Assembly: GCA_045128715.1 (NCBI GenBank)
Contig: JBGVRU010000017.1
Coordinates: forward strand, 18,909-82,908
Length of the DNA stretch: 64,000 bases
Source: Acutalibacteraceae bacterium
Lineage (GTDB): Bacteria > Bacillota > Clostridia > Oscillospirales > Acutalibacteraceae
Direction: 5' to 3'
The notes below the pieces were generated by a model, which saw nothing but the letters and a program-made list of their open reading frames with translations, was not told where the DNA came from and ran no database searches. The translations under genes and the position numbers were made by a program. This document shows positions 22,529 through 33,437 of the stretch, in pieces (position 1 is the first letter of the stretch; the number at the start of each line of letters is the position of its first letter).

Positions 22529-24323
22529 ACAAGAAAAAACAAAAAAGCTTGACAGAAAAACCGTAAAAAGCATCTTTTTGCGTCTTTGCACCTATATATT
22601 AAATTACTGGTATCTGTTTATTCCAGCTGTAATTTTAACCTTTATATCAAATCAGCTATCTCTATTAGGTCCTAAATATTCCGGAGATGCTATTGATGCT
22701 TTAGCGGCTGTAGGAGGCGTTGATTTCGATTCGGTATGGTATAATGTAGTTAAAATGATTATTTGCTATGCTTTATCATCTGTACTGTCCTACATTTTGG
22801 CAACGCTGATGATATTTATGAGTCAAAAAATAGTTTACACTATGCGACGCCAGCTTTTTGAAAAATTGACTTCGCTGCCTGTAGGTTATTTTGATACCCA
22901 CCCCACAGGAGATATTATAAGCCATATTTCCTATGATATTGATACCATTAACAGTTCCCTTTCTCACGACCTTGTACAGATAATGACAAGTATATATACC
23001 GTTATCGGTTCACTGATATTTATGTGGAATATTTCAAAACCGTTGATTATTGTGTTTGCCATAACTGTACCTACTTCAATATTGTTTACTAGATTTCACT
23101 CAAAACGTGTCCGTCCTCTCTTTCGCGCACGTTCCAAAAAGCTAGGTGAGCTTAACGGCTATGCCGAAGAAATGCTTTCTGGCTGCCGCACTATTAAAGC
23201 TTATGTCCGTGAGGATGAAATAGGACGACGCTTTAATAAACGAAACACCGACTCTATGAATGCATATTACAAGGCTGACTATTATGGTTGTACAATGGGT
23301 CCTACAGTGAACTTTATAAACAATCTTTCAATCTCACTTATAATGATACTGGGCGGAATACTTTATCTTTATTCCCAAAACGGTATTGCTAAAGCAGGCT
23401 CACTGTTTTTTATAACGCTAGGCGGTGTTTCTCAGTTCGTGCAGTACTCACGCAAATTTGCAGGCCCAATAAACGAATTTGCAAATATTATTAATGAATT
23501 GCAGTCTGCGTTCTCTGCCGCTGAGCGTGTATTCAAAATTATTGATGAAGAACCTGAGCATAAAGATTCCCAAAATGCTGTTGTTATTGAAAATATTAAG
23601 GGTGAGGTTGAGTTTGAAAATGTCGTTTTCGGTTATACGCCAGATAAAACAATTCTCAAAAGCATATCATTTGCTGTAAAGCCAGGTAAAACTATTGCGA
23701 TTGTAGGTCCCACAGGAGCCGGAAAAACCACAATAATTAATCTGCTTATGCGATTTTACGATGCAAACGACGGCAGTATAACGGTCGATGGCACTGAATC
23801 AAAAAAAATAATCCGAAAATCGCTCCGTCAGGCTTATACGATGGTGCTTCAGGATACCTGGCTATTTTGCGGTTCTATATATGACAATATCGCTTACGGC
23901 AGAGAAAACGCAACTGAGGAAGAAATAAAAGTCGCCGCGCGCGCTGCTCGCATAGATAAATATATTGAATCTTTGCCAGACGGTTACAATACGCTTCTTA
24001 CTGATGACGGCATTAATATTTCAAAGGGTCAACGTCAGCTTATAACAATTGCCCGTGCTATGATAGCTAATTCTCAAATGCTGATTCTTGACGAAGCTAC
24101 ATCAAATGTTGATTCTAAAACAGAGATGAAAATACAGGAAGCTATGGCAGAGCTGATGAAAGGTCGTACCTGCTTTGTTATAGCTCACAGACTTTCAACC
24201 ATTCAGAATGCCGATCTAATTATTGTTATTCAGGACGGAAAAATCACCGAAAGCGGAAACCACCAAGAGTTGATGCAAAAGAACGGATTTTACAGCACAC
24301 TTTATAATTCTCAGTTTAATTAA
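22521..24323 (+). CDS. ABC transporter ATP-binding/permease protein (partner half-transporter)
   Basis: Walker A GPTGAGKTT, signature ISKGQRQL, Walker B MLILDEATSNVD. Overlaps the upstream partner by 8 nt. Confidence 0.85.
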   Translation: MSKQEKTKKLDRKTVKSIFLRLCTYILNYWYLFIPAVILTFISNQLSLLGPKYSGDAIDALAAVGGVDFDSVWYNVVKMIICYALSSVLSYILATLMIFMSQKIVYTMRRQLFEKLTSLPVGYFDTHPTGDIISHISYDIDTINSSLSHDLVQIMTSIYTVIGSLIFMWNISKPLIIVFAITVPTSILFTRFHSKRVRPLFRARSKKLGELNGYAEEMLSGCRTIKAYVREDEIGRRFNKRNTDSMNAYYKADYYGCTMGPTVNFINNLSISLIMILGGILYLYSQNGIAKAGSLFFITLGGVSQFVQYSRKFAGPINEFANIINELQSAFSAAERVFKIIDEEPEHKDSQNAVVIENIKGEVEFENVVFGYTPDKTILKSISFAVKPGKTIAIVGPTGAGKTTIINLLMRFYDANDGSITVDGTESKKIIRKSLRQAYTMVLQDTWLFCGSIYDNIAYGRENATEEEIKVAARAARIDKYIESLPDGYNTLLTDDGINISKGQRQLITIARAMIANSQMLILDEATSNVDSKTEMKIQEAMAELMKGRTCFVIAHRLSTIQNADLIIVIQDGKITESGNHQELMQKNGFYSTLYNSQFN

Positions 24324-24330
24324 AAATACA

Positions 24331-24363
24331 AAACCGAAATACTAAATTAGTATTTCGGTTTTT
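24331..24363 (+). terminator. rho-independent terminator after the ABC operon
   Basis: AAACCGAAATACT / AGTATTTCGGTTT stem followed by a T-run. Confidence 0.75.
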
Positions 24364-24383
24364 ACTATTGACAGTGACAAAGT

Positions 24384-24428
24384 AAAAAGGGGCTGTCTCA
24401 CTAAGAAAAAGTGAGGCAGCCCCTTTTT
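24384..24428. terminator. strong bidirectional hairpin; on the minus strand it directly follows the partial tRNA-Lys 3'-end copy
   Basis: AAAAAGGGGCTGTCTCAC / GTGAGGCAGCCCCTTTTT, an 18-bp stem with one mismatch and U-runs on both strands. Confidence 0.7.
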
Positions 24429-24447
24429 CTGGTGATCCATCGGGGAT
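24426..24447 (-). repeat. 22-nt exact direct repeat of the tRNA-Lys 3' end plus its downstream junction (second copy at 24639-24660)
   Basis: TTTCTGGTGATCCATCGGGGAT occurs at both positions. The copy at 24639-24660 spans the acceptor/T-stem 3' end of the intact tRNA-Lys. Confidence 0.85.
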
Positions 24448-24604
24448 GAATCCGCTTCGCGTTTTCTCTGCTTGACGACCGTTTGCTTTGCAAACAGTAC
24501 CCGTCTTCGCACCGCTACGCTACAAAACAGTTCACCGAACTGTTTTGCTTAACGCTTTGCGCCCTCTCAGGGTTCGAATCCCCTCTTATACTTTTCACAA
24601 AATT

Positions 24605-24640
24605 AAAAAACCTGAAACAACCAAAAGGCCATTTCAGGTT
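24605..24640 (-). terminator. rho-independent terminator after tRNA-Lys
   Basis: Minus-strand AACCTGAAA / TTTCAGGTT stem followed by TTTTTT. Confidence 0.7.
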
Positions 24641-24642
24641 TC

Positions 24643-24718
24643 TGGTGATCCATCGGGGATTCGAACCCCGGACACCTTGATTAAAAGTCAAGTGCTCTGC
24701 CAACTGAGCTAATGAATC
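24643..24718 (-). tRNA. tRNA-Lys (anticodon UUU), CCA encoded
   Basis: Reverse complement reads GATTCAT-TA-GCTCAGTTGGCAGAGC-A-CTTGA-CTTTTAA-TCAAG-GTGTC-CGGGG-TTCGAAT-CCCCG-ATGGATC-A-CCA. Confidence 0.9.
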
Positions 24719-24748: not shown

Positions 24749-24777
24749 ATTATATCAAGAGTGTTCCCCAATGTCAA
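24749..24777 (-). promoter_or_regulatory. promoter of tRNA-Lys (TTGACA-17-TATAAT on the minus strand)
   Basis: Reverse complement reads TTGACA ttggggaacactcttga TATAAT, about 30 nt upstream of the tRNA. Confidence 0.65.
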
Positions 24778-33220: not shown

Positions 33221-33437
33221 GCTTTGCGAAGCAAAGCACATTAATTATCACGGCGAAGCCGTGTATATCATCAATTCCATAAGGAATTGCATATCATCAA
33301 AGCGGAACGCTTTGTATATCATCATTGCAAAAGAATTTTTGATGCACACCTGAAGGTGTGATGAGATACAAGGGCGGTAAAACCGCCCTTGATGATATAC
33401 AGCCTAACGGCTGATGATATACCATTGCTTTCGCAAT
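33221..33437. repeat. array of 8-9 short perfect hairpins of differing sequence, alternating with a conserved 12-mer (3 direct TGTATATCATCA-type, 3 inverted TGATGATATACA-type)
   Basis: 12-mers at 33262-73, 33288-99 and 33313-24 (direct) and at 33359-70, 33390-401 and 33412-23 (inverted). Hairpins at 33221-37, 33251-61, 33274-87, 33300-12, 33345-60, 33371-89, 33402-11 and 33424-37. Confidence 0.8.

Follow-up and report, generated by a model that had tools for sequence, protein, structure and literature searches.

A protein-less, structured element family behind tRNA genes of gut Clostridia has ends that match the neighbouring tRNA gene

Results

An exact repeat of the tRNA-Lys 3' end encloses a structured element

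The window, a stretch of 64,000 nucleotides from an Acutalibacteraceae bacterium, carries on its minus strand an intact tRNA-Lys(UUU) gene followed by a second copy of the gene's 3' end. No second tRNA-Lys gene was found in the assembly. The features of the locus are listed below in the direction of tRNA transcription.

24749..24777, minus strand: tRNA-Lys promoter, consensus sigma-70, TTGACA-17-TATAAT with TG
24643..24718, minus strand: tRNA-Lys(UUU) gene, intact (ARAGORN and Rfam tRNA model, 70.9 bits)
24639..24660, minus strand: proximal copy of the 22-nt repeat, tRNA-Lys positions 59-76 plus trailer GAAA
24605..24641, minus strand: Term1, hairpin and T-run, terminator of tRNA-Lys
24584..24604, minus strand: A+T-rich spacer from Term1 to the element
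24570..24583, minus strand: 5' arm ("antiT") GGGGATTCGAACCC, reverse complement of tRNA-Lys positions 51-64
24448..24569, minus strand: conserved structured core
24562-24572, minus strand: P2 of the core, CCCT-GAG-AGGG, overlapping the 5' arm
24517-24555, minus strand: P3, a long hairpin
24474-24505, minus strand: P4-P6, GACGGGTAC..GGTCGTC
24448-24469, minus strand: P7/P8 and the conserved GCGGATTC
24426..24447, minus strand: distal copy of the 22-nt repeat, tRNA-Lys positions 59-76 plus GAAA
24384..24428, minus strand: Term2, hairpin and T-run 3' of the element
24330..24362, strand unassigned: bidirectional hairpin at the end of a convergent ABC-transporter gene (stop at 24323); flank only, outside the element

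The 22-mer TTTCTGGTGATCCATCGGGGAT occurs exactly twice in the window by exact-match count (24426-24447 and 24639-24660) and was absent from all 100 shuffles of the window; the exact repeat is beyond chance expectation. An earlier note on this DNA had described the duplicate, had placed its upper copy on the 3' end of tRNA-Lys and had seen a hairpin terminator after each copy on the minus strand, and all of this was borne out. The inverted T-arm core GGGTTCGAATCCCC that it reported on the plus strand at 24570-24583 and the hairpin GTTTGC-TTT-GCAAAC at 24481-24495 were likewise found in place. A further hairpin, AAAACAGTT-CACCG-AACTGTTTT, does exist but lies at 24524-24546 and not at 24514-24536, a displacement of 10 nt. 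Inspection of ORFs between the two repeats detected no integrase, as the note had said, and no credible ORF. A possible acceptor minihelix in the lower copy (GATTCAT/ATGGATC) was rejected as a coincidence, since GGATNYAT is conserved in the family regardless of the tRNA.

A search of the window for a promoter of the element's own gave none, and the tRNA-Lys promoter is the sole promoter-like site found that could transcribe the element, by read-through. Hairpins resembling Term1 follow tRNA-Lys at element-free sites in two other species, and a strain that is ~98.8% identical has a different hairpin in place of Term2. Terminator hairpins around tRNA genes are replaced very rapidly in these genomes, and old junctions are blurred.

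The element belongs to a conserved family with a strand-specific fold

The ~150 nt between Term1 and the lower repeat, for which the earlier note had proposed a genome search, are single-copy in this genome. Related genomes have the segment too, many of them as multiple copies that follow various tRNA genes. The part of the window from 24430 to 24583 (minus strand) reads as one complete copy of an element, giving a full 163-position match to the family covariance model (183.8 bits).

A consensus fold was obtained with RNAalifold on a MAFFT alignment of 13 sequences, and the covariance model was built from the same alignment. In this fold helix P1 links the two ends of the element: the first 6 nt of the 5' arm pair with the distal repeat, positions 59-64 of which form the 3' strand of P1, and TCGAA is left unpaired. 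P2 is CCCU-GAG-AGGG, P3 a long hairpin around AAAACAGU...ACUGUUUU, P4-P6 a bipartite hairpin GACGGGUAC..GGUCGUC, and P7/P8 a short hairpin ahead of a conserved GCGGAUNY. RNAalifold scored 18 of the 45 pairs as compensatory among the 13 sequences. When 64 distinct copies were compared, standard pairs occupied 94.6% of pair cells (80.6% in shuffles; 40-51% in controls with partners slid by 1-3 columns) and double-sided changes were seen at 36/45 pairs, figures that are inflated because the 64-copy alignment was fitted to the model, the 13-sequence RNAalifold run being independent of that fit. Several conserved U:G pairs become A·C mismatches on the opposite strand, and the window copy folds at -59.4 (z -4.45) as the tRNA strand versus -49.8 as the other strand, an advantage of ~10 kcal/mol. 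These two observations argue that selection sees a single strand of tRNA sense, as RNA or as ssDNA. The multi-helix fold is conserved, covarying and strand-specific.

The element is thus one member of a conserved, protein-less family of ~160 nt that lies behind tRNA genes in gut Clostridia. The covariance model matched 88/121 genomes in the genus sample (0-9 copies each), 88/301 genomes and 46/152 genera in the order sample, and 62/251 genomes and 38/156 genera in the sample of the class Clostridia (up to 11 copies per genome); most genomes surveyed are MAGs, so absences in these counts are soft. An exact 19-mer scan of named genomes found carriers among Oscillospirales MAGs (Acutalibacteraceae, Oscillospiraceae, Ruminococcaceae) and at least one cultured carrier species, Acetanaerobacterium elongatum. 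In one 17.5-kb stretch all four tRNA genes are occupied by elements.

Rfam 15 gave no credible family match on 24430-24600 at E-values up to 10, and blastn of phage and plasmid collections returned no match to the element. Viral contigs yielded only two real element matches, four further 17-mer matches being due to chance. Full-text searching of the literature found no description of the element.

The ends are tailored to the adjacent tRNA gene

Almost every copy examined has a tRNA or tmRNA gene immediately upstream on its own strand. The distance from gene to element was 37-59 nt in two censuses, and copies not directly behind a tRNA or tmRNA gene were behind another copy, in an array. In Acetanaerobacterium elongatum (CGMCC 1.5012), where the element sits without a terminator between tRNA-Thr(UGU) and a second tRNA gene, the distance is 17 nt. 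Partner genes include those for Lys-UUU, Arg-UCU/CCG/ACG, Leu-GAG/CAA/CAG, Thr-CGU/UGU, Glu, Ser-GGA/UGA/GCU, Gln, Trp, Pro and tmRNA; one core family stands behind at least 15 different tRNA species.

The ends of 79 copies were compared position by position with the neighbouring tRNA. Across tRNA positions 51-64, the 5' arm has the complementary base in 68-79 of the 79 copies, depending on the position; complementarity falls to ~55-60% at positions 65-66, and is at the random level from position 67 on and, on the other side, at position 50. In the distal repeat, positions 59-76 agree with the tRNA in 73-79/79 copies, and 62/79 have the full 18/18 identity. At position 58 only 4 of 79 copies are identical to the tRNA, which places a sharp boundary at 58|59. 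The T-loop variants TTCGAAT, TTCGAGT, TTCGATT and TTCAAGT are each matched by a complementary arm, and position 57 of the tRNA covaries with the arm, though it has no partner inside the element. The arm thus tracks the T loop, position 57 included, and is antisense to an uninterrupted stretch across the start of the repeat. The same pattern was seen with Lys, Arg (three isoacceptors), Leu, Thr, Glu, Ser, Gln, Trp, Pro and tmRNA, and several unrelated cores within the same genome share the design of antisense arm plus tRNA 3' copy.

Beyond the CCA, the trailer matches the tRNA locus at +1 to +6 in 56-67/79 copies, and in some copies identity runs on through the terminator and the spacer. Such extension into trailer, terminator and spacer is duplication at the DNA level and not mimicry of a tRNA. 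The acceptor/CCA part of the distal copy has decayed in some copies.

Gain, loss, arrays and islets

A look-up of the identical sigma-factor protein led to two other assemblies of the same species, ~98.5-98.8% identical over ~4-6.6 kb. In one strain the element is present and differs by four substitutions, another hairpin stands in place of Term2, and the distal repeat lacks its CCA; the other strain lacks the element and has a different terminator directly after the CCA. Exact look-up of the ABC-transporter protein and a metagenome pattern scan for the strain-specific promoter gave no match. In other species tRNA-Lys is followed by a Term1-like hairpin and no element. Comparison of relatives, which the earlier note had suggested as a way to tell an empty from an occupied site, turned up both kinds, so that the condition under which the note would have been refuted, one arrangement without an island in all relatives, had a mixed outcome. 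The element shows insertion polymorphism between strains and species.

An orthologous pair of one naive and one filled site (loci L014 and L066) differs by the spacer, the element, positions 59-76 and a second terminator. By hand alignment, both terminators of the filled L066 site are homologous to the single terminator of naive L014 (89% and 79%). This comparison suggests that insertion duplicated everything from position 59 to the end of the terminator.

When the tRNA partner was traced on a tree of the core alone, its label had to change 15 times (minimum 12; ~25 in shuffles); core lineages therefore tend to stay with one tRNA, and there are a few well-supported switches. Distinct core lineages were seen behind orthologous tRNA-Lys genes that share the same terminator type.

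Tandem arrays, truncated 5' fragments and degenerate copies are common, and at the end of several arrays there is a partial 5' arm, broken off within the P2 loop (CCCTGAG|). At three loci the nearest tRNA gene is kilobases away from the element copies and other genes intervene; at two of the three, near-identical copies flank a 3-4 kb islet. The islet contains an HTH-AAA_28-CYTH protein and a protein of no assigned function at one locus, and an AraC regulator, a protein of no assigned function and an EamA transporter at another. The copies at the tRNA-Ser islet are identical exactly from the first arm base to the CCA. At the third locus, L101, a tandem pair of elements has 2.7 kb of tRNA-free sequence upstream.

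No protein recurs with the element

Clustering of ORFs in the flanks of ~45 and ~80 loci revealed no recurrent protein other than syntenic housekeeping genes, no recombinase among them, and 120+ loci had no integrase. The Y1 transposase (PF01797) was absent from this genome and several multi-copy carriers (G000, G004, G008, G015 and G045 lack it and have copies) and present in several non-carriers. Reverse transcriptase (PF00078) was found in 7/24 genomes and was absent from G000, G049, G060, G135, G137 and G045; TnpB (PF07282) was found in 0/24. The large serine recombinase PF07508 is nearly everywhere among the tested genomes and so is uninformative. IS110-family domains (PF01548/PF02371) were present in 8/14 carriers versus 1/9 non-carriers. 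Yet the IS110-family recombinase is missing from high-copy carriers such as G060, G049 and G008, and no DEDD/Transposase_20 gene adjoined the element in the examined flanks; the enrichment is weak and the family is not required.

Several candidate classes were set aside on these grounds. An IS200/IS605-type element, or a PATE derived from one, does not agree with the absence of the Y1 transposase in carriers, and the flanking hairpins are not conserved. Retro-insertion at T-runs, in the manner of a SINE, fails on carriers without reverse transcriptase. A TnpB omega-RNA (TAM TTCGA plus an 18-nt guide) would lack TnpB, and its guide, matching positions 59-76, would target the genome's own tRNA gene. 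An IS110 bridge RNA would have no neighbouring recombinase, the family being missing from high-copy carriers. A group I intron or trans-splicing ribozyme would share the logic of the guide, and the resemblance ends with its being antisense to the junction; the element departs from it in size, in terminal base and in splice-site wobble. A group I intron needs a core of at least ~200 nt, a terminal G before the 3' exon and a U·G at the 5' splice site; here the core is ~115 nt, every copy has C or T ahead of A59, and A58 pairs with U.

Discussion

Relation to known integrative systems

Islands at tRNA genes, with tyrosine integrases and sublocation to the T loop, have been described (Islander; PMC4383910); mycobacteriophage Ms6 has a T-loop attB (PMC1762012), and Dehalococcoides carries tandem islands at ssrA (PMC3146451). 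The element resembles such islands in that it targets the 3' portion of a tRNA or tmRNA gene, its identity block runs from the T loop to past the CCA with the gene left intact and a second 3' fragment at the far end, and its copies stack in tandem at one tDNA, a few of them bounding islets of 3-4 kb. It differs from them in being a unit of ~160-215 nt without integrase and usually without cargo, in having a target-antisense arm and an RNA-like covarying fold, and in serving at least 15 tRNA identities with one core family by a change of arms. As to regeneration of tRNA-Lys by element-borne sequence, the tRNA is intact, Term1 is native-like and the L066 terminators are both paralogous.

Integron attC sites and the attP of CTX-phi, a Xer-dependent IMEX, are strand-specific folded single strands of conserved structure. 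Their stem mimics or complements a double-stranded target, units stack by a fixed platform, and cassettes may be empty or carry genes. The element would similarly be a strand-specific folded single-strand site of 60-140 nt, and its strand-specific structure is kept by compensatory change. Its platform, however, is the T loop of a tRNA and not attI or dif, and its core is conserved in sequence beyond structure. The sharp 58|59 boundary would be the trace of a defined exchange point.

CIMEs, which are non-autonomous derivatives of integrative elements, and MITEs have att sites or terminal inverted repeats that are recognised by a known cognate enzyme. Like them, the element is short, protein-less, multi-copy, polymorphic in presence and absence and presumably mobilised in trans. 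Unlike them, it has no autonomous parent that we could find, and its ends are derived from the target and not fixed.

Targets are set by pairing in several systems, including the guide sequences of IS200/IS605, the bridge RNA of IS110, the omega RNA of TnpB and the guides of group I and II introns. Here too the joining point is bridged by a short stretch within the element that is complementary to the target, the arm being antisense to the ligated junction as in a group I internal guide sequence, and specificity changes with that short sequence. In contrast to these systems, the cognate proteins are absent from many carriers of the element; and in contrast to a group I intron, the core is too small, lacks a terminal G and matches no Rfam model.

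A tRNA-targeted cassette and its rivals

It is established that the element is conserved, structured, protein-less and anchored to tRNA genes, and that its ends match the local tRNA around 58|59. To account for this we propose, putting the chance of being right at about one half, that the element is a non-autonomous integrative cassette that homes to the 3' side of a matching tRNA or tmRNA gene and recognises the T-loop junction 58|59 through base pairing of its folded single strand. The active form, we infer, would be the folded strand of tRNA sense, either ssDNA or a read-through transcript. P1 and the adjacent unpaired TCGAA would present the complement of the target across 58|59, and a postulated recombinase or nuclease-ligase supplied in trans would exchange strands there. 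In the product one 3' end of the tRNA would be regenerated, and a second, displaced or duplicated, would lie ~213 nt away; the two would be the 22-nt repeat pair. Base pairing, and not a protein, would set tRNA specificity; arms that pair with the target would allow one core to serve many tRNAs. A cassette with the folded strand as its cis-acting site appears to be the most economical mechanism. Descriptions that take the proximal or the distal copy as the original are cyclic permutations of one unit.

Several observations do not sit easily with the cassette. The tested enzyme families do not track carriers, and the partial arms at array ends (CCCTGAG|) are predicted by neither simple model. 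The crossover point is ambiguous, downstream of Term1 or in the T loop; as Term1 is like the terminators native to species without the element, an insertion downstream of it that duplicated a long stretch of target is favoured over a crossover in the T loop. In the core tree the tRNA types come close to being monophyletic, so that much of the pattern could be vertical descent and loss. The fidelity of most core lineages to one tRNA type speaks for a passive repeat without dedicated machinery, as does the search for partner enzymes, which gave none; such a repeat would be spread and lost by homologous recombination through tRNA genes or other copies, by unequal crossing-over and by gene conversion between direct repeats, with quasi-palindrome template switching keeping the arm complementary to the adjacent T arm. 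Long repeats do co-occur with homology on both sides, as gene conversion predicts, and near-identical copies flank islets like portable homology. Such processes leave it unexplained, however, how new copies arise at naive genes for other tRNAs, why the 58|59 boundary is so sharp in 73-79/79 copies and what preserves, across the whole class, a complex fold whose unpaired bases are conserved, and we regard this account as improbable.

A non-coding RNA gene partnered with its tRNA, its patchiness a matter of dispensability, is the main rival, if still an unlikely one. Such an RNA would arise from the strong tRNA promoter through read-through, or within tRNA operons as part of the common transcript. 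The cognate tRNA or pre-tRNA would be the target of its antisense arm and tRNA-like 3' end, which could bridge 58|59 in the role of a splint or guide, serve as a decoy, or help in processing or quality control. The strand-specific, strongly covarying fold with its conserved unpaired nucleotides speaks for it, as do the position directly downstream of, and co-oriented with, a highly expressed RNA gene, the covariation of the arm with the partnerless T-loop position 57 and the recurrence of the same arm and 3' copy on several unrelated cores of one genome. In Acetanaerobacterium elongatum the element must be transcribed, as no terminator separates it from the two tRNA genes around it. Against these points, the element has no promoter of its own and stands behind a strong terminator at most loci; identity to the tRNA locus extends beyond the tRNA to the trailer, which has no function, and in some copies takes in all of the terminator and spacer; no Rfam family corresponds to it; and strain-level presence and absence, arrays, truncations and 0-11 copies per genome look selfish and not like housekeeping. 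The RNA of ~170 nt that the earlier note had offered as an option thus gains the conserved fold on the tRNA strand, and is weakened by the missing promoter and by a CCA that is sometimes decayed. The cassette and the tRNA-partnered RNA are not exclusive, as a mobile element may need its transcript.

The two other origins that had been put forward for the locus fare worse. A tyrosine-integrase island or prophage at the T loop of tRNA-Lys, nearly all of it lost and its attL and attR left ~190 nt apart, would explain a repeat that runs from the T loop past the 3' end with the tRNA regenerated, the classic footprint of a tDNA island, and to that extent the geometry of the repeats fits an att-type scar. 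The interior is not island residue, though: it is a complete family member, a full-length covarying unit present at hundreds of loci behind at least 15 tRNA species, with an antisense arm tailored to each tRNA; 120+ loci yielded no integrase; and the compensatory changes indicate pairing within a single strand and not double-stranded arms for binding a protein. A classical integrase scar is largely refuted and effectively excluded, and we accord the lost island very little probability. A diverged tandem tRNA-Lys pseudogene has in its favour the shared 3' 18 nt and a T-arm-like 14-mer, which is inverted; ARAGORN and the Rfam tRNA model were blank in 24428-24600 and the same core follows many other tRNAs, so that a degenerate second tRNA is refuted, with next to no probability left to it.

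Implications

Genes for tRNAs are classic landing sites for mobile DNA, and the specificity has so far been ascribed to integrase proteins. Here, in abundant gut Clostridia, as many as a dozen tRNA genes of one genome are occupied by a non-coding unit of ~160 nt, and this unit seems to specify its target through two short arms with a conserved fold between them. Ends that are tailored to the neighbouring tRNA point to an undescribed way of targeting insertions by base pairing.

It is possible, though we would not bet on it, that arm and core form a self-contained, reprogrammable module that directs DNA insertion next to any tRNA gene. Pairing across 58|59 would then direct a general enzyme of the host or of a mobile genetic element acting in trans, or, conceivably, the element's own catalytic RNA or ssDNA fold would act; integration sites would in that case be specified independently of protein, and the outcome would be tRNA-anchored arrays of cassettes that could also carry genes. 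Were the element to work instead as an RNA on its cognate tRNA, it would represent a new class of tRNA-specific regulator. If the arms do set specificity, the family would embody a new principle of nucleic-acid-guided integration, potentially programmable, and would explain a large share of the hitherto unexplained structured intergenic DNA beside tRNA genes in gut metagenomes; the 3' flanks of tRNA genes would be cassette platforms that also capture accessory genes.

Inserts That Share the Design of the Element

The genome to which the window belongs (G000) carries, outside the window, further inserts built like the element but around different cores. A second family, type B, lies behind tRNA-Gly UCC (G000:C68 21300-21614, minus strand) and has the core GGGAATCGAACAAGGAGC...AACAGTCCAGTGGACTGTT...; its design is that of the element: a 15-nt arm is antisense to the T arm, and 19 nt of the tRNA 3' end are copied. 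On contig C59, tRNA-Arg(CCG) is followed by a truncated 5' fragment of type B, and on C57 tRNA-Met is followed by a lone antisense arm. A third insert of ~150 nt, unrelated to the other two, is found at tRNA-Met (G000:C30 4700-5038, minus strand). It is bounded by a 20-nt repeat, ACGCCCCACCAAACAAGCAT, which comprises the 3' strand of the acceptor, the CCA and the trailer, and it contains CAGGGACT, which is antisense to the T arm. Its logic is that of the element, with another core and another boundary.

Terminator Hairpins and Distal Hairpin Modules

At the terminator site beside the element, the window (24333-24423) and locus L084 (4390-4438), from a strain ~98.8% identical to the window's, carry wholly unlike hairpin terminators, flanked on either side by conserved sequence. 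In a third strain yet another hairpin is present, immediately 3' of the CCA. Terminator hairpins seem to be exchanged as modules. A further type of module, distal to the element, was seen downstream of tRNA-Lys at the orthologous naive and filled loci L014 (47-170) and L066 (245-420) of genomes G007 and G081. It starts with GGGATGAGMACCCCGTGGGGTTCGTCGAAGC, after which variable hairpins alternate with GAAGC-like linkers, and it resembles the hairpin arrays at window positions 33221-33437.

Gene Islets and Recombinase Genes

At two loci, L231 (G429:C33 1512-5267) and L118 (185-4324), near-identical element copies bound islets of 3-4 kb. One islet encodes an HTH-AAA_28-CYTH protein and an unknown 402-aa protein; the other encodes an AraC regulator, an unknown 493-aa protein and an EamA transporter. 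No recombinase gene is present in either islet. The islets are either versions of the cassette that carry cargo or the outcome of capture by recombination between copies.

Only one element copy was seen adjoining recombinases. In IMG/VR UViG_3300020112_001660 (L088, 2039-7434), three consecutive large serine recombinase genes, an unknown 253-aa ORF and a terminator precede the 5' part of an element, which lies at the contig end; no tRNA is present upstream. In the window's own genome, three divergent recombinase genes of the IS110 family (DEDD plus Transposase_20; 448, 481 and 389 aa) take up nearly the whole of a 6.4-kb contig (L209, G000:C69 1-6436), with no obvious IS ends. This is an unusual cluster of recombinases of the RNA-guided type.

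Distribution and Transcription Context

Complete element copies also occur in bins of other phyla, on contigs labelled Collinsella aerofaciens (L089) and Ignavibacteriales MAG (L168). One, on a contig of 57% G+C, is located at tRNA-Arg(ACG); the other is at the extreme start of a 250-kb contig of 35% G+C. These copies reflect either mis-binning or chimeric assembly, or transfer between phyla.

Occupancy of tRNA genes can be near saturation: across 17.5 kb of locus L230 (G411:C107 36500-54000), each of four tRNA genes that stand singly and dispersed (Pro-CGG, Arg-ACG, Leu-CAG and Leu-GAG) has its own element copy ~48 nt downstream. In the cultured species Acetanaerobacterium elongatum (L102, NZ_FNID01000022.1, 600-1050), the element follows tRNA-Thr(UGU) after 17 nt, and the next tRNA gene begins ~40 nt 3' of it. 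Because the element lies between two tRNA genes, and no terminators separate it from either of them in this interval, it must belong to a polycistronic tRNA transcript. Acetanaerobacterium elongatum is therefore a good entry point for experiments.
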